Shown piece after piece: positions 635-61,346 of a stretch of DNA of 64,000 bases. This DNA comes from Acidimicrobiales bacterium. GTDB lineage: Bacteria > Actinomycetota > Acidimicrobiia > Acidimicrobiales > Bin134. The first letter of the stretch is position 1. Each line of letters begins with the position of its first letter. The notes under the pieces are model-generated. The model was given only the letters and a program-made list of their open reading frames with translations, made no database searches and was not told the origin of the DNA. The stretch covers positions 961,545-1,025,544 of the forward strand of contig OZ220703.1 of NCBI GenBank assembly GCA_965116535.1, read 5' to 3'. Both the position numbers and the translations under genes were made by a program.

Positions 635-762
635 AGGAATCCCTCCAATCGACAAAAAGCCTGGCGCGCCCAAACACGCGCCAACCCGATTTGGTGCAAC
701 ACCCTAAACCAAACCAGCTTTGACCGCTAGAGACTCTGAAATAGAACGTTCAAAATTGATTC

Positions 763-788
763 GGGGCCCGCCCTCTCGAGCGGGCCCC
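763..788 (-). terminator. Intrinsic-terminator-like hairpin after SBP copy 2
   Basis: A perfect 9-bp stem GGGGCCCGC/GCGGGCCCC lies 60 nt past the stop at 849. On the minus strand a TTTT-containing tail (GAATCAATTTTGAA) follows it. Confidence 0.6.
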
Positions 789-848
789 GAACATTTGGTT
801 GACTTTGCTCAGCCCCTTCCGGGAGCTAGAACCGATCAGCCCCAACGA

Positions 849-2969
849 TCACGCTGCGGCCCTTGCTGCGGCGAGCCATTCGTCGACCGTGGCCTGGTTG
901 GCGGCGATCCAGTCGTCGGCCGCGGCCTGCACGTCGGCCTCGGTGTTGGCGCCGCCGTCGTAGGCCAGGTTCTGCAAAGCGATGTCGATCACCGGGATCG
1001 TCACCAGCTCCAACAGCTTGGCCGCAGCCGGGTTAGCCACCAAGAACTCGTTGGAGGCCACAACGCGGATGTCGGCGGCCACGAAGCCCATCTCGCAGGG
1101 CTGGCCCGGACACTGGTCAGCGGGCAGCGCCGCCGCGCCAACCTGGCTCTCCAGCGGATTGCCCACAGACACCCAGATCACATCGCTTCCCGGCACCAGC
1201 TCAGCGGTGAACGCGCCCGGCGTCCAGATGTACTGCAAGATCGACTCGCCCCGGTTGAACCGGCCCACCGAGTCCGCGAACAAAGCCGCGTGCTCCGCCG
1301 ACACCTGCTCGATGGTGTCCTCCCAGCCGTTCTGGGCGATGGTGTCGTTGATCACCACCTGACAGCCCCAACCGTCGTTGCAGCCCATCAGATCGGCCTT
1401 GCCGTTGCCGTCCACGTCGAACAGCGCCGCGATATCGGGATTGTTGCCGATGTCGTCGAGCATCGTGATCCCATTGGCCTCAGCAGTGGCCTTGTCCACG
1501 ATGAACCCCTGCAAACCGCCGGCCACAATCTCCTGGCCTATAGGCGACACCACATCGGCCACGCCGGCCTCTTGGATCAACGTGGTGTGGATCGGGAACC
1601 ACCCGTTCACCCACAAGTCGTACTCGCCCTCGCCCAACGCCGGATAGAACGTCGCCGGAGCCAGCTCCGCCTCAGAGGGATCAGACACCTCATAGCCCAA
1701 CTCCTGCAACAGCGTCCGATAAATCGCCGCCTGCATATAACCAGTCGACCAATTCGCCCGAGCCATCGACACGCTCACACCCTCGCCCGGGGTATCGCTC
1801 ATCGGCTCCGGTGCCGCGGGGGTGAAGCCGCTGGCGTTGCGGGCTTCTTCGAGCCAGGCGTCGATGGTGGCGCGGTTGGCGGCGATCCAGTCGTCGGCCG
1901 CGGCCTGCACGTCGGCCTCGGTGTTGGCGCCGCCGTCGTAGGCCAGGTTCTGCAAAGCGATGTCGATCACCGGGATCGTCACCAGCTCCAACAGCTTGGC
2001 CGCAGCCGGGTTAGCCACCAAGAACTCGTTGGAGGCCACAACGCGGATGTCGGCGGCCACGAAGCCCATCTCGCAGGGCTGGCCCGGACACTGGTCAGCG
2101 GGCAGCGCGCCAACCTGAGAGGGCAGCGGATTGCCCACAGACACCCAGATCACATCGCTTCCCGGCACCAGCTCAGCGGTGAACGCGCCCGGCGTCCAGA
2201 TGTACTGCAAGATCGACTCGCCCCGGTTGAACCGGCCCACCGAGTCCGCGAACAAAGCCGCGTGCTCCGCCGACACCTGCTCGATGGTGTCCTCCCAGCC
2301 GTTCTGGGCGATGGTGTCGTTGATCACCACCTGACAGCCCCAACCGTCGTTGCAGCCCATCAGATCGGCCTTGCCGTTGCCGTCCACGTCGAACAGCGCC
2401 GCGATATCGGGATTGTTGCCGATGTCGTCGAGCATCGTGATCCCATTGGCCTCAGCAGTGGCCTTGTCCACGATGAACCCCTGCAAACCGCCGGCCACAA
2501 TCTCCTGGCCTATAGGCGACACCACATCGGCCACGCCGGCCTCTTGGATCAACGTGGTGTGGATCGGGAACCACCCGTTCACCCACAAGTCGTACTCGCC
2601 CTCGCCCAACGCCGGATAGAACGTCGCCGGAGCCAGCTCCGCCTCAGAGGGATCAGACACCTCATAGCCCAACTCCTGCAACAGCGTCCGATAAATCGCC
2701 GCCTGCATATAACCAGTCGACCAATTCGCCCGAGCCATCGACACGCTCACACCCTCACCGGGCATGGCCATCTCATCAGGCATATCCTCAGGAGCGTCAG
2801 CCTCATCAGGAGCGTCAGCCTCATCAGGAGCGTCGGGCGCGTCGGGCGCCTCCTCCGGCGCCGGCCCCGCAGCCGGCGCGTCATCGTCATCATTTCCGCA
2901 ACCAGCAACCACCAGCCCGAAAACCAAAAAAACGGACAACAGAACCCGCCAAAGGCTTCGCTCTCTCAT
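849..2969 (-). CDS. Tandem-domain glycine betaine/choline-type ABC substrate-binding lipoprotein, copy 2 (two near-identical SBP domains)
   Basis: Track ORF 849..3008 was trimmed to the Met at 2969, which has an upstream GGAGGG. Lipobox VAGC is followed by an acidic PDAPDEA linker. The block GEGVSVSMARANWSTGYMQAAIYRTLLQELGYEV...WVNGWFPIH occurs twice (OpuAC-like domain). Confidence 0.85.
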   Translation of the reverse strand: MRERSLWRVLLSVFLVFGLVVAGCGNDDDDAPAAGPAPEEAPDAPDAPDEADAPDEADAPEDMPDEMAMPGEGVSVSMARANWSTGYMQAAIYRTLLQELGYEVSDPSEAELAPATFYPALGEGEYDLWVNGWFPIHTTLIQEAGVADVVSPIGQEIVAGGLQGFIVDKATAEANGITMLDDIGNNPDIAALFDVDGNGKADLMGCNDGWGCQVVINDTIAQNGWEDTIEQVSAEHAALFADSVGRFNRGESILQYIWTPGAFTAELVPGSDVIWVSVGNPLPSQVGALPADQCPGQPCEMGFVAADIRVVASNEFLVANPAAAKLLELVTIPVIDIALQNLAYDGGANTEADVQAAADDWIAANRATIDAWLEEARNASGFTPAAPEPMSDTPGEGVSVSMARANWSTGYMQAAIYRTLLQELGYEVSDPSEAELAPATFYPALGEGEYDLWVNGWFPIHTTLIQEAGVADVVSPIGQEIVAGGLQGFIVDKATAEANGITMLDDIGNNPDIAALFDVDGNGKADLMGCNDGWGCQVVINDTIAQNGWEDTIEQVSAEHAALFADSVGRFNRGESILQYIWTPGAFTAELVPGSDVIWVSVGNPLESQVGAAALPADQCPGQPCEMGFVAADIRVVASNEFLVANPAAAKLLELVTIPVIDIALQNLAYDGGANTEADVQAAADDWIAANQATVDEWLAAARAAA

Positions 2970-2988
2970 AGGAATCCCTCCAATCGAC

Positions 2989-3018
2989 AAAAAGCCTGGC
3001 GCGCCCAAACACGCGCCA
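2989..3018 (-). promoter_or_regulatory. Leader hairpin plus U-tract directly upstream of the SBP RBS (attenuator-like); copies also at 654-683 and 5312-5341
   Basis: Minus strand reads TGGCGCG-TGTTTGGG-CGCGCCA-GGCTTTTTG, then GGAGGG and ATG. The 7-bp stem is 2997-3003/3012-3018. Confidence 0.4.
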
Positions 3019-3097
3019 ACCCGATTTGGTGCAACACCCTAAACCAAACCAGCTTTGACCGCTAGAGACTCTGAAATAGAACGTTCAAAATTGATTC

Positions 3098-3123
3098 GGG
3101 GCCCGCCCTCTCGAGCGGGCCCC
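3098..3123 (-). terminator. Intrinsic-terminator-like hairpin after SBP copy 3
   Basis: Same 9-bp stem as 763-788, one repeat unit (2335 bp) further on. Confidence 0.6.
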
Positions 3124-3183
3124 GAACATTTGGTTGACTTTGCTCAGCCCCTTCCGGGAGCTAGAACCGATCAGCCCCAACGA

Positions 3184-5292
3184 TCACGCTGCGGCCCTTG
3201 CTGCGGCGAGCCATTCGTCGACCGTGGCCTGGTTGGCGGCGATCCAGTCGTCGGCCGCGGCCTGCACGTCGGCCTCGGTGTTGGCGCCGCCGTCGTAGGC
3301 CAGGTTCTGCAAAGCGATGTCGATCACCGGGATCGTCACCAGCTCCAACAGCTTGGCCGCAGCCGGGTTAGCCACCAAGAACTCGTTGGAGGCCACAACG
3401 CGGATGTCGGCGGCCACGAAGCCCATCTCGCAGGGCTGGCCCGGACACTGGTCAGCGGGCAGCGCCGCCGCGCCAACCTGGCTCTCCAGCGGATTGCCCA
3501 CAGACACCCAGATCACATCGCTTCCCGGCACCAGCTCAGCGGTGAACGCGCCCGGCGTCCAGATGTACTGCAAGATCGACTCGCCCCGGTTGAACCGGCC
3601 CACCGAGTCCGCGAACAAAGCCGCGTGCTCCGCCGACACCTGCTCGATGGTGTCCTCCCAGCCGTTCTGGGCGATGGTGTCGTTGATCACCACCTGACAG
3701 CCCCAACCGTCGTTGCAGCCCATCAGATCGGCCTTGCCGTTGCCGTCCACGTCGAACAGCGCCGCGATATCGGGATTGTTGCCGATGTCGTCGAGCATCG
3801 TGATCCCATTGGCCTCAGCAGTGGCCTTGTCCACGATGAACCCCTGCAAACCGCCGGCCACAATCTCCTGGCCTATAGGCGACACCACATCGGCCACGCC
3901 GGCCTCTTGGATCAACGTGGTGTGGATCGGGAACCACCCGTTCACCCACAAGTCGTACTCGCCCTCGCCCAACGCCGGATAGAACGTCGCCGGAGCCAGC
4001 TCCGCCTCAGAGGGATCAGACACCTCATAGCCCAACTCCTGCAACAGCGTCCGATAAATCGCCGCCTGCATATAACCAGTCGACCAATTCGCCCGAGCCA
4101 TCGACACGCTCACACCCTCGCCCGGGGTATCGCTCATCGGCTCCGGTGCCGCGGGGGTGAAGCCGCTGGCGTTGCGGGCTTCTTCGAGCCAGGCGTCGAT
4201 GGTGGCGCGGTTGGCGGCGATCCAGTCGTCGGCCGCGGCCTGCACGTCGGCCTCGGTGTTGGCGCCGCCGTCGTAGGCCAGGTTCTGCAAAGCGATGTCG
4301 ATCACCGGGATCGTCACCAGCTCCAACAGCTTGGCCGCAGCCGGGTTAGCCACCAAGAACTCGTTGGAGGCCACAACGCGGATGTCGGCGGCCACGAAGC
4401 CCATCTCGCAGGGCTGGCCCGGACACTGGTCAGCGGGCAGCGCCGCCGCGCCAACCTGAGAGGGCAGCGGATTGCCCACAGACACCCAGATCACATCGCT
4501 TCCCGGCACCAGCTCAGCGGTGAACGCGCCCGGCGTCCAGATGTACTGCAAGATCGACTCGCCCCGGTTGAACCGGCCCACCGAGTCCGCGAACAAAGCC
4601 GCGTGCTCCGCCGACACCTGCTCGATGGTGTCCTCCCAGCCGTTCTGGGCGATGGTGTCGTTGATCACCACCTGACAGCCCCAACCGTCGTTGCAGCCCA
4701 TCAGATCGGCCTTGCCGTTGCCGTCCACGTCGAACAGCGCCGCGATATCGGGATTGTTGCCGATGTCGTCGAGCATCGTGATCCCATTGGCCTCAGCAGT
4801 GGCCTTGTCCACGATGAACCCCTGCAAACCGCCGGCCACAATCTCCTGGCCTATAGGCGACACCACATCGGCCACGCCGGCCTCTTGGATCAACGTGGTG
4901 TGGATCGGGAACCACCCGTTCACCCACAAGTCGTACTCGCCCTCGCCCAACGCCGGATAGAACGTCGCCGGAGCCAGCTCCGCCTCAGAGGGATCAGACA
5001 CCTCATAGCCCAACTCCTGCAACAGCGTACGATAAATCGCCGCCTGCATATAACCAGTCGACCAATTCGCCCGAGCCATCGACACGCTCACACCCTCACC
5101 GGGCATGGCCATCTCATCAGGCATATCCTCAGGAGCGTCAGCCTCATCAGGAGCGTCGGGCGCGTCGGGCGCCTCCTCCGGCGCCGGCCCCGCAGCCGGC
5201 GCGTCATCGTCATCATTTCCGCAACCAGCAACCACCAGCCCGAAAACCAAAAAAACGGACAACAGAACCCGCCAAAGGCTTCGCTCTCTCAT
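3184..5292 (-). CDS. Tandem-domain glycine betaine/choline-type ABC substrate-binding lipoprotein, copy 3
   Basis: Track ORF 3184..5361 was trimmed to the Met at 5292 (same RBS and start context as the other copies). It differs from copy 2 only by an 18-bp and a 6-bp indel and one synonymous change near 5031. Confidence 0.85.
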   Translation of the reverse strand: MRERSLWRVLLSVFLVFGLVVAGCGNDDDDAPAAGPAPEEAPDAPDAPDEADAPEDMPDEMAMPGEGVSVSMARANWSTGYMQAAIYRTLLQELGYEVSDPSEAELAPATFYPALGEGEYDLWVNGWFPIHTTLIQEAGVADVVSPIGQEIVAGGLQGFIVDKATAEANGITMLDDIGNNPDIAALFDVDGNGKADLMGCNDGWGCQVVINDTIAQNGWEDTIEQVSAEHAALFADSVGRFNRGESILQYIWTPGAFTAELVPGSDVIWVSVGNPLPSQVGAAALPADQCPGQPCEMGFVAADIRVVASNEFLVANPAAAKLLELVTIPVIDIALQNLAYDGGANTEADVQAAADDWIAANRATIDAWLEEARNASGFTPAAPEPMSDTPGEGVSVSMARANWSTGYMQAAIYRTLLQELGYEVSDPSEAELAPATFYPALGEGEYDLWVNGWFPIHTTLIQEAGVADVVSPIGQEIVAGGLQGFIVDKATAEANGITMLDDIGNNPDIAALFDVDGNGKADLMGCNDGWGCQVVINDTIAQNGWEDTIEQVSAEHAALFADSVGRFNRGESILQYIWTPGAFTAELVPGSDVIWVSVGNPLESQVGAAALPADQCPGQPCEMGFVAADIRVVASNEFLVANPAAAKLLELVTIPVIDIALQNLAYDGGANTEADVQAAADDWIAANQATVDEWLAAARAAA

Positions 5293-5417
5293 AGGAATCC
5301 CTCCAATCGACAAAAAGCCTGGCGCGCCCAAACACGCGCCAACCCGCCTTTCGCAAACCACCCTAATTTGAACAGACCGCGAACGCTAGAGCCTGTCTGA
5401 ATTTTGTTAGGCGTCTT

Positions 5418-40111: not shown

Positions 40112-40397
40112 AACTTCCTCCAAGGCCGGGGTGCCATCGTCTTTGGGACCGCCCTACAAGCGCCTCCCGCCTCCCAGCGTTTCCCCTACGCTACGGCCTT
40201 GCTAGGTGTCACGACAACCACTGCCGCCGACGCGTTCACAATTGCCACCTGAGCGACAATAACAACTTCTTCAACATTCGCCTCTGACCTGCGAAAACTA
40301 TCAAGACGCCCGTGCACGAATAAAGAAGAGGTGCTACAGTCCTGAATTCCAGTCGAGGCGGTGCCAACTTGGTTGGGCAAGACAATAGGACCGCAAG

Positions 40398-40428
40398 TTA
40401 TCCACAGCTTATGCACATTTGTGGATAC
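40398..40428. promoter_or_regulatory. Pair of convergent DnaA boxes in the dnaA promoter region
   Basis: TTATCCACA at 40398-40406 is a perfect E. coli-type consensus. TGTGGATAC at 40420-40428 is the reverse complement of GTATCCACA. The pair lies about 30-60 nt before the dnaA ATG. Confidence 0.7.
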
Positions 40429-40459
40429 CACATGTCATTTTTTTGGAGTTGCCAACAAA

Positions 40460-41842
40460 ATGGTGTCTGCAACAATTCTCTGGTCTTCCTTTGAGAGCAG
40501 CATTCGAGCTCAAGTTCCTGATGCCGTCTGGCAATCCACATTCAACCCAGCAAAAGCAACATCGCTTGAGGAAGACATTCTTGAACTGACCGTTCCAAAC
40601 ACCATCATCAAAGATCGTCTTGAAGGCGAATACTTTGAAGTCTTGAGGAACGCACTAGCTAGCTCAAATGCCACCCATATAACTCTGAAGATCAATACTG
40701 AACAAGATCCTAGCGGCACCGACGACAATTATGACTCTGCTGCTGTACCGCCAGTAGCTACTCCAGAAGTGGCAAGTGCTCCTCCCATCAACCGGACAAC
40801 GACTGCTCTTCATCCAAACTACGTATTCGATAAATTTGTGACCGGGCCATCCAATCGATTTGCCTTGGCAGCAGCGCTCTCAGTCGCCGAAACCCCTGGT
40901 AAATCGTACAATCCGCTCTTCATCCATGGTCATGCTGGCCTTGGCAAGACGCATTTACTCCAGGCGATTGGCCACTACGTCAAGAGTCACTACGTGGACG
41001 ATCAGCGTCATCCAATCAAGCGAATTGTCTATGTGTCCACCGAAACTTTCCTCAATCAGTTTGTTGATGCAATCCGAACAAACACTCGAAGCGAATTCAA
41101 GAAAATCTACAGAGACGTGGATGTACTTCTGGTAGATGACATTCAATTCCTCGAAGGTAAAGAGGGTCTTCAGGAGGAGTTCTTCCATACATTCAACTCT
41201 CTTCATGAAGTCAACAAGCAAATTGTTCTTACCAGTGATCGACCTCCCGACGCGATACCAACTCTTGAAGATCGCATGACCAGTCGATTCAAGATGGGAT
41301 TGCTTACCGACATTCAACCTCCCGACCTTGAAACTCGACTGGCAATTCTTCGAAAGAAGGCTGAGCAATCCAATTTCGCTATTGTCGACGATGTACTTAC
41401 GTTTATCGCCAGTAATATTAAGGACAATATTCGGGAATTGGAAGGAGCTCTCACTCGGGTTACAGCATATGCCAGCTTTAACGACAAACCGCTTGATCTT
41501 GAACTGGCTAAATTCATCCTTCGCGACATCATGACTCGCCGCGAACCACAACCGGTGACGGCTGACATGATCCTGACGGCGACAGCCGACCTATTCAGAT
41601 TCAGCGTGGATGACATCGTCGGACCACGACGTCAGCGGCCGCTTGTCAAGGCCCGGCAGGTGTCCATGTACGTGTTTCGAGAGTTGACCGAGCTGAGCTA
41701 CCCCGACATTGCCCGCGTCTTCGGCGGCCGAGACCACACCACAGCCATACACGCAGTGCAGAAGATCACAAAGCAAATGTCGGAGCAGCCGGAGACGTTC
41801 AACCAGATCAACGAACTCATTCAAAAGATCAAGAATGCTTGA
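40460..41842 (+). CDS. dnaA: Chromosomal replication initiator protein DnaA
   Basis: AAA+ Walker A IHGHAGLGKTHLL, Walker B VLLVDDIQFL, and domain IV HTTAIHAVQKI. The track ORF was trimmed to ATG 40460. Confidence 0.95.
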   Translation: MVSATILWSSFESSIRAQVPDAVWQSTFNPAKATSLEEDILELTVPNTIIKDRLEGEYFEVLRNALASSNATHITLKINTEQDPSGTDDNYDSAAVPPVATPEVASAPPINRTTTALHPNYVFDKFVTGPSNRFALAAALSVAETPGKSYNPLFIHGHAGLGKTHLLQAIGHYVKSHYVDDQRHPIKRIVYVSTETFLNQFVDAIRTNTRSEFKKIYRDVDVLLVDDIQFLEGKEGLQEEFFHTFNSLHEVNKQIVLTSDRPPDAIPTLEDRMTSRFKMGLLTDIQPPDLETRLAILRKKAEQSNFAIVDDVLTFIASNIKDNIRELEGALTRVTAYASFNDKPLDLELAKFILRDIMTRREPQPVTADMILTATADLFRFSVDDIVGPRRQRPLVKARQVSMYVFRELTELSYPDIARVFGGRDHTTAIHAVQKITKQMSEQPETFNQINELIQKIKNA

Positions 41843-42084
41843 GCCCAGACAATGGGGAATGCAAGTGGAGCAACCTGGGGAAAGATCGCTCGCAGCTGGG
41901 GATAGGGAGCACATAGTCCACAGGGAGCCTGCCGCGGCCGCGAGTAGTGCACTTGCCTGGGGAAAGCGAAGCAGAAAGTTAAGCCAAGTTGACCAGGGGA
42001 AATGGTATCTTTCCACATTTCCACCGACCTACTGCTACTAGCAGTAATTATTTAAATAAGTACAGGTAAGAAGGAGAGCAGCCT
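41843..42084. other. oriC: Candidate oriC core (dnaA-dnaN spacer): DnaA-box-like motifs, repeated TGGGGAA motif, AT-rich unwinding element
   Basis: TAGTCCACA at 41914-41922. TTTCCACA and TTTCCACC in tandem at 42010-42025. Palindrome CTGCTAcTAGCAG at 42032-42044. The AT-rich stretch TAATTATTTAAATAAG at 42045-42060 stands out in a GC-rich genome. Confidence 0.6.
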
Positions 42085-43179
42085 GTGAAGTTTCGATGCG
42101 AGCGAGATGCTCTTTTGGAAGCATTGACGGTGACAGGGAGAGCAGCGGGAACACGAGGTGGGTTCCATCTCGTGCTTTCTGGAGTTCACATGGCTTTGGA
42201 GGGCGATGAACTCACCCTCACGGCCACTGACAGGGAGTTGACCATAACCATTCGACTGACAGTGGCTGGTGATGGAGACGGAGCCACCGTGGTCACTTCG
42301 CGGTTGATTGGCGACGTGGTTCGTTCTCTGGATGCTGGGGCAGTGAATGTGACAGTGGACGGTGAAGGCATCCACATTGATTCGGCTCGCTCCAAATTCT
42401 CTCTCCAGACAATGGGAACTGAAGATTTCCCCCAGGTGGGAGAGCTGGAGGGTGACCCGGTAGTGCTTGAGGCCGAAGGTTTGCTCACAGCTTTGCGTCA
42501 GGTAGTGAAGGCAGCGTCAGCCGATGAGTCTCGCCCTGTGTTGACCGGCGTGCTGCTGTCCGCAGAGCAGAACGGGCTCCGCCTGGTCACAACTGATTCG
42601 TATCGCTTGGCTCTGTGTGATCTGCCCGGCTTGGAGGTCCTTGGATCTGATCAGAGTGTTTTGGTGCCATCGCGGGCGCTTCAAGAAGTGATCCGCCTAT
42701 TAGCTGATGTTGAACAGGTCAGCGTGCGGTTTAGCGACCGCGAGGCATCGTTCAGCCTGGGGGCGATAACGGTAACCACCAGGTTGATTGAAGGAGAATT
42801 TCCCAGCTATCAGGGCTTGATCCCCACGCACCAGCCGAATCGGCTAACCGTAAACAGGGAGGGATTCATCAACGCGGTACGCAGAGTTCGTCTTATGGCC
42901 CAAGACTCCACCCCAATCCGCATGGATATGTCGGAGGCCGGATTGGAGTTGTCGGCCACGACCCAAGACGTCGGCGAGGCCACCGAGCAGCTGGACGCTG
43001 TGTTTGAGGGGGAAGGCCTCACGGTGGCTTTCAATCCCGAGTATCTGCTGGACGGAGCAGAGGCCGCGCCCGGCGAGGAGATTGTGCTGAACACCGTGGA
43101 CGCCCTGAAGCCAGCGGTAATTCGCACCCCCGAATCCGAGCAGTTCCTTTATTTGCTCATGCCCGTTCGTATCAACTGA
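42085..43179 (+). CDS. dnaN: DNA polymerase III beta sliding clamp
   Basis: GTG start with an AAGGAGAG RBS. 364 aa. Conserved position. C-terminal LYLLMPVRI. Confidence 0.95.
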   Translation: MKFRCERDALLEALTVTGRAAGTRGGFHLVLSGVHMALEGDELTLTATDRELTITIRLTVAGDGDGATVVTSRLIGDVVRSLDAGAVNVTVDGEGIHIDSARSKFSLQTMGTEDFPQVGELEGDPVVLEAEGLLTALRQVVKAASADESRPVLTGVLLSAEQNGLRLVTTDSYRLALCDLPGLEVLGSDQSVLVPSRALQEVIRLLADVEQVSVRFSDREASFSLGAITVTTRLIEGEFPSYQGLIPTHQPNRLTVNREGFINAVRRVRLMAQDSTPIRMDMSEAGLELSATTQDVGEATEQLDAVFEGEGLTVAFNPEYLLDGAEAAPGEEIVLNTVDALKPAVIRTPESEQFLYLLMPVRIN

Positions 43180-43186
43180 GCGGGGC

Positions 43187-44272
43187 GTGCGCCTTCAACG
43201 TCTCTGGCTAGCGGACTTTCGCAATTATTCCCATCTCGATATTGAACTGCCCGCAGGTACCAGCCTGTTCGTAGGTCTCAACGGCGAGGGCAAGACCAAT
43301 CTTCTTGAGGCGGTGTACTACCTGGCCTCGATGTCATCGTTTCGCGTGAAGACCGCTGACTCGATGATCCGAGCGGGGCCAGACGTTGCCGAGGCAGTGG
43401 TGCGGGGCGAGGTGGTAGTCGACCAGCGGGAGATCTTGCTGGAGGCCGCACTCAGGTCCACCGGAAGGTCGCAGTTTCAGGTCAACCGCCAGCGAGTGCG
43501 CCGCCGAGAACTGCTGGGCTTGGTGCCCGTGTCTGTTTTCATGCCCGACGACTTGGTGTTGCTCAAAGGCGGACCTGGAGAACGGCGCCAATTCGTTGAC
43601 GATGCCCTAGGTCAGATCGATCCCCGCCTGGATGCAGTCAGGGCAAACCTGGAGAGCATCTTGCGCCAGCGGAATGCCCTGCTGCGCCAATCGGGAGGCC
43701 AGATCGACTCTGAGATTGCGGTAACGCTCGACGTATGGGACGAGAAGCTTGCCGATGTCGGGGAGCGGCTGGGGGAAGCCCGAAGGAACTTGGTGGCCAA
43801 CCTCGAGCCCAAGGCGGCTGCGGCGTACCAAGAGATAGCGGTCAAATCAACATCTGTGAGCTTGTCCTATGAGTCAACCTGGTCACCCGGTGAATTGGGA
43901 GACGTATTGGGTCGGGCCCGAAAAGAAGACCTCCGTCGAGGAGCGACAACCGTGGGTCCTCATCGAGACGATGTCGCGATCGTTCTCGGGGGAAGGCCAG
44001 CTCGAACTCACGCTTCCCAGGGGGAACAGCGGTCGTTGGCGTTGGCGCTGCGCTTGGCCGTACACCGGGAGTTGGCGGATGCAACTGGTCAATCCCCCCT
44101 CCTTTTGCTGGACGATGTGTTCTCGGAGTTGGATCCGGAGAGGTCGAAGGGTGTCTTGAAGGCGCTGCAATCTGAGCAGACGCTTTTGACCACGGCCGGC
44201 GCGCTCCCTTCTGACATCAACTACAACGCCCGATTTCGAGTAGCGGACGGTCGGATCATTCGCGAAACGTGA
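43187..44272 (+). CDS. recF: DNA replication and repair protein RecF
   Basis: Walker A GLNGEGKTNLLEA, signature SQGEQRSLALALRLA, and LLLLDDVFSELD. Confidence 0.95.
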   Translation: MRLQRLWLADFRNYSHLDIELPAGTSLFVGLNGEGKTNLLEAVYYLASMSSFRVKTADSMIRAGPDVAEAVVRGEVVVDQREILLEAALRSTGRSQFQVNRQRVRRRELLGLVPVSVFMPDDLVLLKGGPGERRQFVDDALGQIDPRLDAVRANLESILRQRNALLRQSGGQIDSEIAVTLDVWDEKLADVGERLGEARRNLVANLEPKAAAAYQEIAVKSTSVSLSYESTWSPGELGDVLGRARKEDLRRGATTVGPHRDDVAIVLGGRPARTHASQGEQRSLALALRLAVHRELADATGQSPLLLLDDVFSELDPERSKGVLKALQSEQTLLTTAGALPSDINYNARFRVADGRIIRET

Positions 44273-44628
44273 CACCACTGGGGATGAGGCAGACTGGTGT
44301 GATGGGGTGGGAGCCATTGCCCAACCGGACCGGACCCAGGCAGTTGCGCGACGCGCTAGACCAGGTGGCATCTCAGCTGAGAGCGCCGCGGGCCCAAGTG
44401 CTGAAGACGGTCTTTGCCGCGTGGGAGGAGCTGGTTGGCTCGGTGATGGCCGCCCATTCCTCGCCGGTGCGATTGGTAGACGGGGAGCTCGTGGTGGCGG
44501 TGGATGATCCTGCGTGGGCGACCGAAATGAAGTTTTTCAGCACCGAGCTCATCGGCCGAATCAACGCCGCCGCGGGAGAGGACACAGTCGTCTCTTTGAA
44601 GGTTCGAGTACGCCCCCAGCGATCGTAG
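44269..44628 (+). CDS. DUF721 (DciA-like) protein
   Basis: GTGA overlap with recF. 119 aa. It occupies the Rv0004-equivalent position between recF and gyrB, and has LVVAVDDPAWATEMKF. Confidence 0.75.
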   Translation: MTPLGMRQTGVMGWEPLPNRTGPRQLRDALDQVASQLRAPRAQVLKTVFAAWEELVGSVMAAHSSPVRLVDGELVVAVDDPAWATEMKFFSTELIGRINAAAGEDTVVSLKVRVRPQRS

Positions 44629-44680
44629 GTTGAAGCCGAAGAACGCCTCTCCAGTGAGTCAATCTGACACCGAAAACTGG

Positions 44681-46807
<2,127 letters not shown>

Positions 46808-46822
46808 GCAACAGGGGATCCC

Positions 46823-49291
46823 GTGCCCGACGAGCTTGACGCCTCGCCTGAGCCTGAGGAGGCGCCGAGCGGCGCAGTCCAGGACATCGACATCCAAACC
46901 GAGATGGAGCAGTCGTTCTTGGACTACGCCATGTCGGTTATCACCGCCCGGGCCCTTCCCGACGTTCGCGACGGTTTGAAGCCGGTCCACCGCCGCATCC
47001 TGTGGGGGATGTATGACCAGGGCACCCGTCCCAACCGGCCTTATGTGAAGTGCGCCCGAGTAGTGGGAGATGTCATGGGGAAGTACCACCCCCATGGCGA
47101 CCAAGCCATCTATGACGCTCTGGTTCGACTGGGACAGGCCTTTTCGCTGAGGCATCCCCTGATCGACCCCCACGGGAACTTCGGATCTCCCAACGATCCG
47201 CCCGCGGCCATGAGATACACCGAGTGCCGCCTCGACGAGCTGGCCATGAGACTGTTGGACGGCATCGACGAACAGACCGTTGATTTCTCCGACAACTTCG
47301 ATGCCACAGAGCAGGAGCCGGTGGTGCTGCCATCTCGGTTCCCCAACTTGTTGGTAAACGGCAGCCAGGGGATTGCGGTGGGAATGGCCACCAACATTCC
47401 GCCTCACAACTTGGGTGAGGTGATTGATGCGGTAAACCACCTGCTGGAGAACCCGGAGGCCACCAACGAGAGCCTGATGGGGTTTGTGAAGGGCCCGGAT
47501 TTCCCCACTCGGGGTCGCATTATGGGCTACCAGGGCATACGGGACGCCTATGCCACCGGCCAGGGGACCATCAAAGTGCGGGCCGCCGCGGAGATCGTAG
47601 AGAGCGGATCCAACGTTCAGATTGTGGTTACGGAGATCCCCTATCAGACCAGCGCCGAGGTCATTGAGGAAAAGGTGGCCGATTTGGTGAACCGTCGGGT
47701 GATCGACGGCATTCGCCAAATCCACAACGAGTCGGCCAAGGGCCAGACCAAGCTGGTGTTCGAGCTGAAGAAGGATGCCCCCGCGTTGGTGGTGCTCAAC
47801 AACCTCTACAAGCACTCACCGCTGCAATCCAACTTCCCGGTGAACATGGTGGCGCTGGCCGACGGCGTGCCCCGGACCATGACGTTGCGCGACTGCCTGG
47901 CTGCATACGCCGACCACCAACAAGAGGTGGTGCGACGCCGAACTGAGTATCGCTTGGACGAGGCTCGCCGCCGAGAGCACATCCTCGAAGGTCTGGTGCG
48001 GGCAGTAGACATGATCGACGAGATCATTGCCGCCATACGGGCGTCGGAGAATCGGGCCGCGGCCCGGGAAACTCTTATGGACGAGCAGTTCGCGTTCAGC
48101 GAGATCCAGGCCAATCACATCTTGGACATGCCGTTGGGCCGACTCACCCAACTCGGCCAGCAGGAGCTGAGCGACGAATTGGCCGAGAAGCGGGCGTTGA
48201 TCACCGAGCTGGAGGCCATATTGGCCGACGATGCCACGCTGCGTGCTGTCATCAAAGAGGAGCTGCTTGAGATTCGGGAGTCGTACGCAACCGAGCGCCG
48301 AACGCAGATAATGGCCGACGAGGGCGAGATCGATATCGAAGCTCTCATCGACGATGAAGATTTGATGTTCAGCTTGAGTTCAGCCGGCTACGTCAAGACG
48401 GTAACTCCTGACGAGTTCAAGACCCAGGGGAGGGGCGGCAAGGGAGTTATCGGCGCCAACCTGAAAGACGGGGATTACATCGCCTCGCTGATTCACACCA
48501 CTGCCCATGCCTACCTGATGTTCTTCACCAACACCGGTCGGGTATATCGCATCAAGGCCCATGAGGTGCCCCGCACCAGCCGAACCGCTCGAGGCATGGC
48601 CATTGTGAACTTGCTGCACTTGGCCCCCGAGGAAACCGTTTCCGCGGTGATCGACACTCGGGACTACGAGACGATGCGGTACCTGCTGTTTGTGACTCGG
48701 CGAGGAATAGTGAAGCGAACCCGGTTCTTGGAATACGACAAGACCCGTACCCGGGGGCTTATCGCCATCAACCTGAAGGAGGGTGACGAGCTGGTGCGGG
48801 TGCTGCCCACCAGCGGATCCGATGACATCTGCCTGGTGAGCGCCACCGGGCAGCTCATGCGTTTCTCGGAGAGCGAGGTCCGGGCCATGGGACGGAACGC
48901 CGCCGGAGTGTGGGGCATGAGGTTGCGAGGCGATGATGTGGTTGTGGCCGCCAGTGCAGTACAACCCGGCGACGAGATGCTGCTGGTTACCGACCAGGGA
49001 TTTGGCAAGCGCACCCCGCTGGACGAGTTTCGGGCCAAGCATCGAGGCGGCTTGGGCATGCGGGCAATGAGGATGATGGACGGCCGGGGCACGGTGGTGG
49101 CCGCACGGGTAGTGGCCCCAGAGGACGAGGTGTTTGTGGTGGCGTCCAATGGGGTGACCATCCGAATACCGGTTTCCTCAGTCTCGGTGATGGGTCGAGA
49201 TGCCTCAGGGGTTCGGGTGATGAGCTTGGTCGACGACCAACTAGTAGCCGCAGTTGCCCCGGTTTTATCCAGCTCAGAAGACGAGGAATAG
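46823..49291 (+). CDS. gyrA: DNA gyrase subunit A
   Basis: SVITARALPDVRDGLKPVHRRILW, GKYHPHGD, and active-site AAMRYTE. 822 aa. Confidence 0.97.
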   Translation: MPDELDASPEPEEAPSGAVQDIDIQTEMEQSFLDYAMSVITARALPDVRDGLKPVHRRILWGMYDQGTRPNRPYVKCARVVGDVMGKYHPHGDQAIYDALVRLGQAFSLRHPLIDPHGNFGSPNDPPAAMRYTECRLDELAMRLLDGIDEQTVDFSDNFDATEQEPVVLPSRFPNLLVNGSQGIAVGMATNIPPHNLGEVIDAVNHLLENPEATNESLMGFVKGPDFPTRGRIMGYQGIRDAYATGQGTIKVRAAAEIVESGSNVQIVVTEIPYQTSAEVIEEKVADLVNRRVIDGIRQIHNESAKGQTKLVFELKKDAPALVVLNNLYKHSPLQSNFPVNMVALADGVPRTMTLRDCLAAYADHQQEVVRRRTEYRLDEARRREHILEGLVRAVDMIDEIIAAIRASENRAAARETLMDEQFAFSEIQANHILDMPLGRLTQLGQQELSDELAEKRALITELEAILADDATLRAVIKEELLEIRESYATERRTQIMADEGEIDIEALIDDEDLMFSLSSAGYVKTVTPDEFKTQGRGGKGVIGANLKDGDYIASLIHTTAHAYLMFFTNTGRVYRIKAHEVPRTSRTARGMAIVNLLHLAPEETVSAVIDTRDYETMRYLLFVTRRGIVKRTRFLEYDKTRTRGLIAINLKEGDELVRVLPTSGSDDICLVSATGQLMRFSESEVRAMGRNAAGVWGMRLRGDDVVVAASAVQPGDEMLLVTDQGFGKRTPLDEFRAKHRGGLGMRAMRMMDGRGTVVAARVVAPEDEVFVVASNGVTIRIPVSSVSVMGRDASGVRVMSLVDDQLVAAVAPVLSSSEDEE

Positions 49292-56730: not shown

Positions 56731-57678
56731 TCAAGCAGAGCCGATCTGGTGACGCAGCCCTTCAATCCAGTTTTGGGCGTCGGCCCACGCGGTGCTGGCG
56801 GCGTTGCTCCGCTCTTCGTTTCCCCGGATGTTTGTGGGGTAAGAGCCGAGGAACTTCACTTCGCCATGCTTGGCCACAATGCTGGTAAGGCAGTCGGCCA
56901 CTAGCTGGTCAGCCACATGGCCTTCGAGGTCGATGAGGAAGCAGTAGTCGCCCAGTGCCTTTTTGGTGGGTCGAGATTCCAGCTTTGTGAGGTTGATGGA
57001 CCGGGCCGCGAACTCAGCGAGGATGCCCATGAGCGAACCCGATCGGTCGGCGCGCTGGAAGACCACGATGGACGTCTTGTCGTGGCCGGTTGGGGCGGGC
57101 ACGCCGGTGCTCGACACCGCAACGAAACGAGTTTGGTTCTCCGGGTGGTCTTCGATGTCGGTGGCGATCATGTCCAATCCGTAGATTTCCTGCGACAGGG
57201 CGGTGCCGATGGCGGCGGCGGTCTTGTCATTGGAAATAGCGAGGTCGCGGGCCGCGGCGGCGGTGGAATTGGCCGCGATTTCCTCGGCGTGGGGGAGGTT
57301 CTCGGTCAAATAGCGTCGACACTGAGCGGTTGCGACCGGGAAACTGATGACCCGGCGAATCTCTTCCATCGAAGTGCCGGAAAAGCCCAGCAGGTGGAGG
57401 CGAACGTCGATGACTACTTCACGCTGGATGAGCAGGTCATGCTCGAAGATCAGGGCGTCGAGGGCCACATTCACCGTCCCCTCGATGGAGTTCTCGATGG
57501 CGGTGAAGCCCAATGCTGCCCGGCCGTCGGCGGCGGCTCCGAGAACTTCGGGGATGGAACGGCACAGGAGGTGGTCGGCTTCAGCCAAGTCGGTTTGGGT
57601 GAGAAGCGCTTCTTCGGTAAATGTGCCCGGCGGTCCCAGGTAGGCCACTTGGCTTACAGATCGGGCAGAGGCAGTCAC
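56731..57678 (-). CDS. pheA: Prephenate dehydratase
   Basis: VAYLGPPGTFTEEA, NSIEGTV, TRFV, and a C-terminal ACT domain. The start is GTG 57678, or possibly GTG 57648. Confidence 0.9.
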   Translation of the reverse strand: MTASARSVSQVAYLGPPGTFTEEALLTQTDLAEADHLLCRSIPEVLGAAADGRAALGFTAIENSIEGTVNVALDALIFEHDLLIQREVVIDVRLHLLGFSGTSMEEIRRVISFPVATAQCRRYLTENLPHAEEIAANSTAAAARDLAISNDKTAAAIGTALSQEIYGLDMIATDIEDHPENQTRFVAVSSTGVPAPTGHDKTSIVVFQRADRSGSLMGILAEFAARSINLTKLESRPTKKALGDYCFLIDLEGHVADQLVADCLTSIVAKHGEVKFLGSYPTNIRGNEERSNAASTAWADAQNWIEGLRHQIGSA

Positions 57679-57692
57679 AAAAGGGCAGGATA

Positions 57693-58484
57693 GTGGGAGT
57701 GGACGAGGGCTTTATTCGGCAATTGATGGCAAACGTGCGCGACGGCACGGTGACCGCGGACGACGCAGTCCGGCAATTGCGCCGCTTGCCATTTGCCGAT
57801 TTGGGATTTGCCCGGGTGGATCATCATCGCAGCCTTCGCCAAGGACTGGCCGAGGTTGTGTATGGACCGGGCAAGTCACCCGACCAGTGCGCGGCGATTG
57901 TGGAGGAGTTGCTCGACCAGCCGGGGGGCCCGGTGCTGTTGACGCGGGCATCAGCTGAGCAGGCGGCGGCCTCACGGCGCCTCAACCCTGGCGGGGAGCG
58001 CTACGACGCCACGATGGTTTGGCGGCCGGCCCCGCCACGGTCCGAGAAGGTGGTGTTGGCCGCGGCGGGCACTGCTGATCTCCCGGTAGCCGACGAGTGC
58101 GGGGTGGTGCTGGCCGCTCACGGCTTGGCCCCGCAGCGGCTCAACGACGTGGGCGTGGCCGGACTCCATCGAATTCTCGGCGAAGTTGAAGCGTTGGCGG
58201 CCGCTGACGCCGTAGTGGTGGTGGCTGGCATGGAAGGCGCGTTGGCCTCGGTGGTGGGCGGGCTAACCATGGCCCCGGTGGTGGCAGTGCCCACCAGCGC
58301 GGGCTACGGCTCTTCGCTTGAGGGGGTCACCCCGCTGTTGGCCATGCTTTCGTCGTGCGCCGCGGGGGTGACCGTGGTGGGAGTGGACAATGGCTTTGGC
58401 GCAGCCTGCGCGGTGCTGCGTTTGCTCAAATCGAGGGAGCGGGCCGCGACAGATGCCGAGCTGAGTGGAGCAAGCGATGTCTGA
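57693..58484 (+). CDS. larB: Nickel-pincer cofactor biosynthesis protein LarB (PurE-like)
   Basis: ARVDHHRSLRQGLAEVVYGPGK and VVVAGMEGALASVVGGL...VVAVPTSAGYG are typical LarB motifs. GTG start. Confidence 0.8.
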   Translation: MGVDEGFIRQLMANVRDGTVTADDAVRQLRRLPFADLGFARVDHHRSLRQGLAEVVYGPGKSPDQCAAIVEELLDQPGGPVLLTRASAEQAAASRRLNPGGERYDATMVWRPAPPRSEKVVLAAAGTADLPVADECGVVLAAHGLAPQRLNDVGVAGLHRILGEVEALAAADAVVVVAGMEGALASVVGGLTMAPVVAVPTSAGYGSSLEGVTPLLAMLSSCAAGVTVVGVDNGFGAACAVLRLLKSRERAATDAELSGASDV

Positions 58485-59664
58485 TCCAGCACAGATCGCT
58501 TGGTTCCACTGTTTCAGTGGGATTGCCGGCGACATGGCCCTGGGGGCGTTGATCGACGCTGGCGCCGATGTGGCAGAGGTGCGGGATATGTGCGAGCTGC
58601 TGCCTTTGGGCGGGTGGGACCTGCAAGCCCACCCCACCCAACGAGGGGGCATTGCCGCTACCGACGTGCGGGTAATCGCCCAGGAGACATCGGTGGTGCG
58701 CACCGCTAGCCATATCAATGCCCTCATCGGAGAGGCTCGACTGCCTGACCGGGTGGCCGATCGGGCGCTGGCGGTTTTCGACGCTCTGGCCCGGGCTGAG
58801 GGCAAACTGCACCGCCGGCCGCCGGAACAGGTGCATTTCCACGAAGTGGGCGGGCTCGATGCCATCATCGACGTGGTGGGCACCTGCGCCGCATTGGAGG
58901 TGCTGGGCATCGACGAGGTCCACTCCAGCGCGGTGGCGTGCGGGCGGGGGATGATCCGCAGCGCTCACGGCAGGCTGCCCAATCCACCGCCTGCCGTGGT
59001 GGAGTTGCTGGTGGGGTGCCCAACGTTCGGATTAGACGTGGGTTTGGAGCTGACCACGCCGACTGGCGCGGCAATTCTGTCGGCGCTGGCCTCTGGATGG
59101 GGGCCCATGCCGCCGATGACCATCTCGGCCGCTGGCTTCGGAGCGGGCGACAATCAGCTGGAGGATCGCCCCAACCTCACTCAGGTAGTGGTGGGGACCA
59201 TGGCGGCGTCTCGTCCCGCGGGACAGCCGGTGATGCTGTTCGAGACCAACGTGGATGACGCCACCGGAGAAACGCTGGCCCACACGGTGGCAACGCTGTT
59301 GGAAGCGGGGGCCCACGATGCTTGGATCACGCCGATCGTCATGAAGAAGGGACGCCCGGCCTACACGGTGAGTGCGTTGGCTGATCCTGTGCTGGGGGAT
59401 CAGGTGGCGGCAACGCTGGTTGAGGAAACAGGCTCGTTAGGCGTGCGAGGGCAGATGCTAGAGCGGTGGCCTCGGGAGCGTCTTGAGCATGATGTAGATG
59501 TGGATGGGCGGCGAATTCGGGTGAAGGTGAGTGAAGGGCGAGTCAAGGTCGAGCACGATGAGGCGGTGAGGGCTTCGAGCCTGTTGGGGTTGCCGGCGCG
59601 TGAGGTCGTCTCGTTGGCGGAGGAGGCTTGGCGGCGGCAGGGAGACGACGAGCCTGTTGCCTAG
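58465..59664 (+). CDS. larC: Nickel insertion protein LarC (DUF111)
   Basis: IAWFHCFSGIAGDMALGALIDAGAD and HFHEVGGLDAIIDVVG. The start is ATG 58465, or ATG 58477 overlapping the larB stop. Confidence 0.85.
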   Translation: MEQAMSDPAQIAWFHCFSGIAGDMALGALIDAGADVAEVRDMCELLPLGGWDLQAHPTQRGGIAATDVRVIAQETSVVRTASHINALIGEARLPDRVADRALAVFDALARAEGKLHRRPPEQVHFHEVGGLDAIIDVVGTCAALEVLGIDEVHSSAVACGRGMIRSAHGRLPNPPPAVVELLVGCPTFGLDVGLELTTPTGAAILSALASGWGPMPPMTISAAGFGAGDNQLEDRPNLTQVVVGTMAASRPAGQPVMLFETNVDDATGETLAHTVATLLEAGAHDAWITPIVMKKGRPAYTVSALADPVLGDQVAATLVEETGSLGVRGQMLERWPRERLEHDVDVDGRRIRVKVSEGRVKVEHDEAVRASSLLGLPAREVVSLAEEAWRRQGDDEPVA

Positions 59665-59674
59665 TATCGGAGAG

Positions 59675-60391
59675 GTGGAAGAGGAACGGCTCTATTTTCG
59701 GCAACTCTTGTCGGGGCGGGATCTGGCTGTAGGGGACATGATGGCCCGCCAGATGGTGAATTTCGTCTACTTGATCGGAGATCGGGAGACCGGTGAAGCG
59801 GTGGTGGTGGATCCGGCTTACGATCCGCAGGGGATCGTGGATCTGGTGGAGGCTGACGGGATGCGGCTCACGGGGGTGCTGGCCACGCACTACCACCCTG
59901 ATCATGTGGGCGGATCGATGATGCAGTTCGCCATCACCGGCGTGGCCGAATTGTTGGAGCTGGTGTCGGTTCCGGTGCATGTGCAGGCTGATGAGGCCCG
60001 CTATGTGACTATGACGACTGGCATCGGCGAAGACGATCTGTGCCTCCATGCCAGTGGTGATGTGCTGTCGGTGGGGGAGGTGGACATCGAGATGATCCAT
60101 ACGCCGGGCCACACTCCAGGGAGCCAGTGTTTTTTGACCAACGGGCGGCTAGTGGCCGGCGACACGCTGTTCTTAGAAGGATGCGGGAGGACCGACCTGC
60201 CGGGAAGCGATCCTGCGGCAATGTACGAGAGCCTCACCCAGCGCCTAGCCCGGGTGCCCGACACGGCGACGCTGTATCCCGGCCACCTGTACTCCCCTCA
60301 ACCGTCGGCTTCGATGGGGGAGACCCGGCGTACCAACTATGTGTTTATGCCCCGTTCAGCCGAACAGTGGCTGGCCATGTTTGGCGGGTGA
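59675..60391 (+). CDS. MBL-fold metallo-hydrolase (glyoxalase II / persulfide dioxygenase-like)
   Basis: The THYHPDHVGG metal motif and HTPGHTPGS. GTG start with a GGAGAG RBS. Confidence 0.8.
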   Translation: MEEERLYFRQLLSGRDLAVGDMMARQMVNFVYLIGDRETGEAVVVDPAYDPQGIVDLVEADGMRLTGVLATHYHPDHVGGSMMQFAITGVAELLELVSVPVHVQADEARYVTMTTGIGEDDLCLHASGDVLSVGEVDIEMIHTPGHTPGSQCFLTNGRLVAGDTLFLEGCGRTDLPGSDPAAMYESLTQRLARVPDTATLYPGHLYSPQPSASMGETRRTNYVFMPRSAEQWLAMFGG

Positions 60392-60759
60392 TCGAATTGG
60401 GATCGCCATCGAATCCGCTGGCCGCTTTGGACCCCCATGTGGCCGGCCCGCTGGAGGAGTTGGTTCAGGCCCTTGATGGAGTGGGGCTGGATCCCGGATT
60501 GTTGGAGCTCTGCGCTGCCCGCATCGAGCAAATGGTTGGCGGTGGGTCGCTGGCCATGTCTCCGCAAGACGATCGAGAGAGGGTCGTGCTGGCGTTCACC
60601 GAGCAATATGTGCTGGATGCCCACGGGGTGACCGATGAACTGTGCATCGAACTGAACGAGCATCTGTCGGCACCAGAGCTGGCCGCGCTCACCACGGCTA
60701 TTGCCACCTTCGAGGCCCTGGCTCGCACCCGGGCGGTATTGAAAGGAGTCACGGAATGA
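60388..60759 (+). CDS. Carboxymuconolactone decarboxylase (AhpD-like) family protein
   Basis: GTGA overlap with the MBL gene. A 123-aa helical protein. Family assignment is tentative. Confidence 0.5.
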   Translation: MIELGSPSNPLAALDPHVAGPLEELVQALDGVGLDPGLLELCAARIEQMVGGGSLAMSPQDDRERVVLAFTEQYVLDAHGVTDELCIELNEHLSAPELAALTTAIATFEALARTRAVLKGVTE

Positions 60760-61259
60760 CCAGAATCGCCATTCCCGAGGGAGGAATGTCGCTATTCGAC
60801 CATCAGCCCGAGCTGTTTGCGGTTTTCAATCGCTTTTACGGGACGCTGTGGAGTGAGGGGCAACTCGATCAGGCCACCAAGGAGGTGGGCCGGCTCCGCA
60901 ACGCCCGGGTAAACGACTGCAACATTTGAAAGAACCTCCGCTTCGCAGGTGCGAAGCAGCAGGGACTTACCGAAGAACTGGTGGATCAGATCGACGACGG
61001 GTACGCCGGCAGCGACTTACCCGATCGACTGAAGCTGGCCTTGCGAATGGCCGACGCGGTTATCTCCGATCCGTCAGGACTAAGCGCAGCCGACCAGGCC
61101 GCGCTGAGCGAAGAATTCACCCCAGCCGAACTGGCTGAACTGGCTTTAACGGTGGCCATGGCCGCAGGCTTCTCCAAGGCGGCCATCGCCTGGGGCCCGC
61201 CCCCGGTCATCCCCGTCACCGAAGTCCCCACCCCCACGCCCGACGGGACCGTGGGCTGA
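60756..61259 (+). CDS. AhpD/CMD-family protein with in-frame TGA (60927-60929), a predicted selenocysteine in a C-N-I-U motif
   Basis: ATGA overlap with the upstream gene and a GAAAGGAG RBS. Track ORFs 60642..60929 and 60981..61259 are in the same frame, separated only by the TGA. A SECIS-like hairpin follows the TGA. Confidence 0.6.
60935..60963 (+). other. Bacterial SECIS-like stem-loop
   Basis: A perfect 7-bp stem at 60940-60946/60951-60957 (GCTTCGC/GCGAAGC) carries an AGGT loop. The loop Gs lie 19-20 nt after the UGA. A lower stem CCT/AGG is possible. Confidence 0.55.
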
Positions 61260-61262
61260 GAG

Positions 61263-61346
<84 letters not shown>

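Follow-up and report, generated by a model that had tools for sequence, protein, structure and literature searches.

How is a UGA codon read when the open reading frame (ORF) that it closes resumes in the same frame, and the two parts together resemble one known protein? This question is raised by a locus in a stretch of 64,000 nucleotides of contig OZ220703.1 (assembly GCA_965116535.1, forward strand, positions 961,545 to 1,025,544), called the window here. It comes from an uncultured sponge symbiont of the Acidimicrobiia genus Ca. Poriferisocius (Sva0996 group) and carries a gene for an AhpD-like protein of the carboxymuconolactone decarboxylase (CMD) fold with an in-frame UGA at 60927–60929. 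The comparison of sequences makes it highly probable that this UGA is decoded as selenocysteine (Sec) by the canonical pathway, within a single AhpD-like gene of 167 residues in which the Sec is a predicted one. Shown directly are the single frame, the alternation of Cys and Sec at one position, selection on both sides of the codon, a hairpin specific to the TGA forms, the AhpD-like fold, a constant partner gene and the adjacency of selA and selB in a sister clade.

Reading frame, protein family and selection across the UGA

The frame runs from the ATG at 60756 to a TGA at 61257–61259, a total of 167 codons whose sole interruption is the TGA at 60927–60929, and the annotated downstream ORF (GTG 60981 to 61259) shares it. 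An unannotated selenoprotein had been proposed here in the initial annotation, whose coordinates (ATG, TGA, shared frame, 167 residues, a 7-bp stem with an AGGU loop and the spacing of the loop Gs) all hold on re-reading. The UGA lies in the motif C55-N-I-U58 and occupies the place of the second Cys of the CxxC pair of AhpD/CMD-fold proteins. That it falls at such a pair in a CMD/AhpD protein, giving CxxU, had also been proposed and agrees with the Pfam CMD model (PF02627), which aligns across the TGA. The read-through product scores 42.6 bits with this model (gathering cut-off 23); the 57-residue fragment alone scores under the cut-off and the 92-residue fragment gives no match.

A search with the read-through product returned 428 relatives, precomputed as PF02627. 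Instead of ending at the UGA these continue to a length of 157–174 residues among the matches listed, and the UGA column is Cys in all 23 aligned homologs (163–174 residues), in the motif C-x-I-C-[KR]-N-L-R-F. The motif residues that follow the UGA, K/R-N-L-R-F, are invariant throughout the family.

A profile search of the PDB matched Atu0492 and PA0269/AhpD (E 2e-9, residues 18–150), the latter with E43, C55, U58 and R62 facing E, C, C and H, and C55-N-I-U58 facing C-A-Y-C. The AlphaFold2 model is one continuous AhpD-like helical domain (predicted local distance difference test 90, predicted template modelling score 0.84), for which the best Foldseek matches are 3c1l, 2ijc, 2o4d, 2gmy and 6k40, with a template modelling (TM) score of about 0.65. 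The closest relatives of solved structure are P. aeruginosa PA0269/AhpD (2ijc, 2o4d, 7xw1) and A. tumefaciens Atu0492 (2gmy), with Foldseek TM scores of 0.61–0.66 and matching E...CxxC positions. PA0269, however, is about 20% identical, has both Cys and His in its CxxCxxxH and lacks the C-terminal Pro-rich tail (residues ~147–167 of the window protein). The canonical AhpD motif, E-x11-C-x-x-C-x3-H, is incomplete: E43, C55 and U58 are present and the His site is occupied by R62, which is invariant in Sec and Cys forms alike. In M. tuberculosis AhpD the motif is E118-x11-C130-x-x-C133-x3-H137. The spacing E43-x11-C55-x-x-U58 is the same, with Sec as the equivalent of Cys133, whereas the structural match is remote (1gu9, TM 0.42, E 3.7), Arg stands for His and there is no ahpC neighbour. 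The protein is thus a predicted AhpD-like oxidoreductase with a CxxU centre, in which the canonical His is replaced by Arg.

The exact 57-residue N-terminal product occurs in 165 blocks of a public assembly index, including closed contigs of 3.5–4.6 Mb, and the TGA and intact frame are kept in 13 of 13 metagenome loci (84–100% nucleotide identity). At codon 58, a scan that took one genome for each GTDB species gave 45 loci (41 TGA, 3 TGC and 1 deletion) and a scan of Joint Genome Institute (JGI) metagenome contigs gave 79 (45 TGA, 32 TGC and 2 TGT), so that 37 loci from the two scans are Cys forms with TGC or TGT in the UGA column. In all, the TGA is shared by about 130 independent loci, which come from Acidimicrobiia and from related metagenome-assembled genomes (MAGs), and none has a frameshift or an extra stop.

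Selection was estimated within Ca. Poriferisocius, from 33 distinct sequences, as dN/dS, the ratio of nonsynonymous to synonymous divergence. The values were 0.042 for codons 1–57 (dS 0.54), 0.040 for codons 59–68, which form the hairpin (dS 0.064), 0.089 for codons 69–75 (dS 0.50) and 0.093 for codons 76–165 (dS 0.77). The 109 codons after the UGA are conserved at the protein level, with a dN/dS of 0.095 over codons 59–165. No in-frame ATG, GTG or TTG is found from the UGA up to codon 76, and the GTG at 60981 is replaced by GTT or GTA in several species, so that the codons just 3′ of the hairpin can be translated only by ribosomes that have passed the UGA. Codons 69–75, which lie ahead of any start codon, nevertheless vary almost only synonymously. 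This pattern of substitution indicates that translation passes the UGA, with purifying selection on both its sides.

Reassignment of UGA in the genetic code was considered and rejected. Ordinary TGA stops are found in the same operon (60389–60391, 60757–60759 and 61257–61259), and since TGA ends the neighbouring genes normally, the code is standard.

The hairpin and the selenocysteine machinery

Eleven nucleotides after the UGA begins a hairpin of the selenocysteine insertion sequence (SECIS) type, GCUUCGC-AGGU-GCGAAGC (loop, GCAGGUGC), with a perfect 7-bp helix. Its loop Gs lie 19–20 nt past the A of the UGA, and counted from the U of the UGA the G/G/U are at positions 22–24. The upper stem-loop of the minimal SECIS of E. 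coli fdhF also lies 11 nt after its UGA, and SelB needs the loop residues G23 and U24; positions 19–24 of the window hairpin presumably include the counterparts of these two residues. The names of the fdhF SECIS features reportedly go back to Huttenhofer in 1996 and Liu in 1998. As checked in the MG1655 sequence, the fdhF element has GCAGGU at positions 19–24, in the same register as the window hairpin, so that the spacing had rightly been called SECIS-like. The two share the distance to the UGA and the placement of GCAGGU. The window hairpin differs from that of fdhF in its stem sequence, the lack of a bulged U at position 17 and the 4-nt loop AGGU, and its SelB site is a predicted one.

In the hairpin codons 59–68, dS is about 8–12 times below that of the flanks. 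GCA GGU GC stands at positions 19–26 in all 33 distinct TGA forms, and the upper stem is paired in 228 of 231 cells (99%) across the 33 distinct sequences. Compensatory changes from CG to UA occur at pair 15–30 in four sequences and at pair 18–27 in one, together with G-U wobble changes. The upper stem is therefore kept in TGA orthologs, while GCAGGU is found in none of the Cys forms, which have GCC GGC, GCG GGC and similar codons instead. Since the hairpin is under such strong selection within the genus (dS 0.064), a conserved trans-acting reader is implied.

Folding energy by itself is modest evidence, and what is decisive is the conservation across related loci. The 45-nt segment that begins with the UGA has a folding energy of −18 kcal/mol (z = −2.95), a value matched by 3 of 200 shuffled sequences, and for a 66-nt segment the z-score is just −1.87. 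An extension of the hairpin by lower stems was predicted by folding and rejected, many cells of the lower pairs being unpaired across orthologs.

The motif and its preceding residues read V-[VN]-D-C-x-x-U in the Sec forms and, for the most part, V-T-G-C-x-x-C in the Cys forms, a difference which suggests two separate clades. At the SECIS position of one Cys form, in an Iamiaceae MAG (locus L038, 10166–10210), a residual hairpin is kept, CUUCGC-CGGC-GCGAAG, which may be a trace of conversion from Sec to Cys.

SelA genes are numerous in Acidimicrobiia, as seen in homology and profile searches, and Actinomarinales have recently been reported with a full Sec pathway. In a sister clade from sponges the TGA gene lies 3–7 kb upstream of selA-selB (loci L058, L065, L066, L067 and L068). 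In Ca. Hopanoidivorans cymbastelae, placed by NCBI in the same family as the window's genus, selA and selB are 7 kb downstream of the TGA ortholog. Four contigs found by seeding with SelA (L065, L067, L068 and L066, the last a closed genome of 2.29 Mb) have the TGA ortholog and its CMD-like partner, in the order CMD-like partner, split AhpD-like Sec gene, ABC transporter, hydrolase, SelA, SelB and WhiB. The hairpin of L067, from a gene near selA-selB, is identical to that of the window nucleotide for nucleotide. The conserved block is found at L058 10154–20030, L065 6456–13332, L066 6514–13032, L067 983–7730 and L068 6059–13220. In this second sponge-associated Acidimicrobiia clade, whose genomes measure about 2.3 Mb, gene calling either misses the TGA gene or splits it, and the hydrolase of the block is an alpha/beta hydrolase.

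Several points weigh against the decoding of the UGA as Sec. Neither the 64-kb window nor about 40 Poriferisocius loci (20 kb) yielded selA, selB, selD or tRNA-Sec. ARAGORN, Rfam and tblastn (queries, E. coli SelA/B/D and Hopanoidivorans SelA/B) were applied to the window and to every locus, and the only sel matches were in L058 and the SelA-seeded loci. SelA was also sought in the window's genus by homology search, profile search, two cluster-member listings examined for contigs of 3.0–4.6 Mb and eight contig look-ups, none of which gave a tie to Ca. Poriferisocius; no SelA on a contig as large as a closed Poriferisocius genome appeared in two lists of the best 120 of more than 8000 SelA matches or in 20 clusters, which is a weak argument given the length of these lists. 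The published table of COG counts of Slaby et al. 2017 (Table S4) gives SelA=0, SelB=0 and SelD=1 for bin134, a Ca. Poriferisocius MAG that is 90% complete (MPNQ01, our locus L021; AhpD-like protein 94% identical). As to the hairpin, its covariation support is thin, with few independent changes in an element that hardly varies, a U.C mismatch is present in the stem of three distinct sequences (four loci), and no Rfam family, including SECIS, matches it. Separately, a second recoded UGA gene was sought in the window and the Poriferisocius loci, both as an in-frame TGA with open frames on the two sides and as a TGA followed by a hairpin with a GGU loop; none was found, and the hits other than the present gene were antisense or adjacent-gene artefacts.

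These observations can be read in another way. If the genus has lost selA/selB or never had them, the UGA could be read through non-canonically, with Cys or Trp inserted by a non-canonical tRNA or by suppression that the hairpin stimulates. The entry for bin134, with SelD but neither SelA nor SelB, favours such an explanation, as does the fact that no SelA is linked to Ca. Poriferisocius among the matches listed and no sel gene lies near the locus in the genus. We nevertheless consider it improbable: the hairpin is identical to that of lineages in which the gene stands beside selA-selB, and its dS implies a conserved trans-acting reader. The MAG of bin134 is also incomplete, and a selA-selB pair, being adjacent, would go missing together; the same table is noisy, listing other bins with SelA/SelB and without SelD; and the lists of SelA homologs were confined to the top 120 of more than 8000. 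The entry for bin134 is therefore a real but modest caveat, because the hairpin of the genus is the same as in the lineages with adjacent selAB and is under strong selection. It is likewise doubtful, and in our judgement quite improbable, that Ca. Poriferisocius truly lacks selA/selB and decodes the UGA by a route undescribed in bacteria, for example through a factor that is xenologous or independent of SelB, or through a non-canonical tRNA that inserts Cys; SelD would then have its role in another selenium trait.

On the canonical Sec pathway, the ribosome would meet the UGA, and the hairpin at 60940–60957 would act as a bacterial SECIS and recruit SelB-GTP-Sec-tRNA(Sec). Sec would be inserted at codon 58 and translation would go on to the TGA at 61257–61259. 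The product would have the centre E43-x11-C55-x-x-U58-x3-R62, an AhpD motif in which Sec replaces the second Cys and Arg the His. It would presumably cycle between the selenolate/thiol and the selenenylsulfide, with a peroxide or disulfide, or else a partner protein, as the putative substrate to be reduced. It would probably share its function with the CMD-like product of the gene directly upstream, to which its translation appears to be coupled.

The UGA as a stop or an error

In a third explanation the UGA is a true stop, the gene is split, and the enzyme is assembled from a 57-residue peptide and a C-terminal one of about 92 residues that has its own initiation. Two ORFs are indeed what gene callers, GenBank and RefSeq give, and in the window GTG 60981 is a possible start. 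This codon is not conserved, on which ground an independent restart at GTG 60981 was rejected, and where it is GTT or GTA the callers take ORFs of 80 or 70 residues. There is no conserved Shine-Dalgarno sequence there, and codons 69–75, though they precede any start, are constrained at the protein level as described above. A split gene would also leave the conserved hairpin without a role and sits poorly with the invariant K/R-N-L-R-F and with a fold that is one continuous domain. We regard it as very improbable.

A pseudogene, or an error of sequencing or assembly turning TGC into TGA, would need one base change, and one species has deleted the cassette, but the probability is next to nil and the comparative data refute it, the same TGA being present in the ~130 independent loci, in short-read and HiFi assemblies and in many species, with no frameshifts or extra stops and a downstream dN/dS of 0.095.

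Gene neighbourhood and relation to known selenoproteins

The features of the locus are collected in Table 1. The gene directly upstream encodes a CMD-like protein, called the partner here. Its GTG start overlaps the stop of the metallo-beta-lactamase (MBL)-fold hydrolase gene (GTGA) and its own TGA stop overlaps the start of the AhpD-like gene (ATGA). The partner is directly upstream in all loci with enough sequence (98 of 98 Sec forms and 33 of 33 Cys forms, 131 of 131 together). Its ortholog in L068 matches Pfam CMD, and the window copy gives a weak match to an NCBIfam YciW-related model. Such an invariant partner suggests a two-subunit enzyme of which it would be the second subunit.

Table 1. 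Features of the AhpD-like locus (positions in the window)
Feature	Position	Strand	Description
Read-through coding sequence of AhpD-like (CMD-fold) protein	60756..61259	+	167 codons; predicted Sec at codon 58; terminal stop TGA 61257-61259
Shine-Dalgarno-like AAGGAG	60743..60748	+	7 nt 5′ of ATG 60756; read from sequence
In-frame UGA, predicted Sec codon (U58)	60927..60929	+	in C55-x-x-U58 redox motif; TGA conserved, Cys in homologs
Bacterial SECIS-type upper stem-loop	60940..60957	+	stem 60940-60946/60951-60957; apical loop AGGU 60947-60950
Extended hairpin, weakly supported	60930..60968	+	lower stems 60930-60932/60966-60968 and 60935-60938/60959-60963; minimum free energy structure
CMD-like partner gene	60388..60759	+	123 residues, no CxxC; directly 5′ of the AhpD-like Sec gene
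Operon context	57621..60391	+	larB-like AIRC 57621-58484; larC (Ni insertion) 58465-59664; MBL-fold hydrolase 59600-60391; consecutive ORFs overlap

The pair of genes forms a cassette at the tail of an apparent larB-like/larC/MBL operon, in which larE was not seen. This context is specific to Ca. Poriferisocius and is not conserved in other lineages. In a 3.59 Mb Acidimicrobiales MAG (OX638350.1; L057, 9940–10240) a deletion of about 630 bp has removed the UGA and the SECIS and fuses the first ~20 codons of the partner to the AhpD-like gene at codon ~88, out of frame. Here one species has lost the cassette naturally, and its genome is a useful control for asking if the Sec machinery went with it.

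Downstream, a tRNA-Leu (CAG) gene on the minus strand (61262–61346) begins 3 nt past the terminal TGA and is followed by genes for a PP2C phosphatase and a PknB-type kinase. The window spans the dnaA-dnaN-recF-gyrB-gyrA origin region (40361–49291). Its first 5400 nt consist of long direct repeats, 98–100% identical, with a unit of ~2335 nt and internal sub-repeats of ~972–978 nt; they encode tandem ORFs of 781 residues on the plus strand (720–3065 and 3055–5400), with no Pfam family above threshold.

AhpD-like selenoproteins with CxxU have been known since 2005–2008 and are among the most abundant selenoproteins in ocean metagenomes. Two groups, AhpD-like 1 (COG2128) and AhpD-like 2 (pfam02627), were described by Zhang and Gladyshev (PMC1088965, PMC2398784) in metagenomes of the Sargasso Sea and of Global Ocean Sampling (GOS), with 299 genes of AhpD-like 1 in GOS. 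An "AhpD-like protein, TIGR01926, CxxU" is listed in a 2026 review (PMC13188914), and such proteins are also present in current databases. The proposal of an unannotated selenoprotein thus stands as far as the gene is concerned, while the kind of protein has long been known. The accompanying remark that selenoproteins besides formate dehydrogenase are uncommon in Actinomycetota does not agree with a 2006 count, in which Actinobacteria were one of the top three phyla by richness of selenoprotein families.

The window clade shares with the AhpD-like selenoproteins of Zhang and Gladyshev the CMD/AhpD fold, the CxxU, the many Cys homologs and an origin in environmental samples rich in Actinomycetota. 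It differs from them in lying far under the TIGR01926 cut-off, in the Arg four residues after Sec, in the obligate upstream CMD-like partner and in the near-invariant SECIS. With TIGR01926 the score is 25.7 bits (curated cut-off 81.8), so that the protein is related and stands outside this subfamily. Similarity to the NCBIfam models NF053654 (GroundWater_YciW), NF041047 (GSU3128 family), NF041537 and NF045649 is weak and local, at the CxxC/U. The protein is not a member of NF053654, the YciW-related (seleno)protein family (29.5 against a cut-off of 310), and the clade falls under the cut-off of every NCBIfam (seleno)protein model of AhpD type, scores lying far below (29.5/310 and 16.6/110). 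Because of these low scores, the Prokaryotic Genome Annotation Pipeline (PGAP) and RefSeq leave the two fragments unjoined. That gene callers would split the gene had been anticipated, and in dozens of Acidimicrobiia genomes GenBank and RefSeq show two adjacent small proteins (57 residues and 70–92 residues) labelled "hypothetical" or "CMD family"; the full-length read-through sequence is absent from the protein collection. Judged against GenBank/RefSeq and the curated models, the gene is, on the comparative evidence, a genuine and unannotated member of the known AhpD-like selenoprotein family and a new branch of it.

This reading corrects a systematic annotation error and adds to the AhpD-like selenoproteins a widespread and well-defined clade, whose members occur in symbionts of sponges and also, as JGI metagenome contigs show, in other samples. 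Knowledge of Sec decoding itself is unchanged unless the genus proves to lack the machinery. The SECIS, being unusually invariant, could be made into a model for searches in Actinomycetota. An enrichment of SelA/SelB in sponge symbionts has already been noted (PMC5649159), and the gene provides a concrete marker of selenium use in dominant sponge symbionts.

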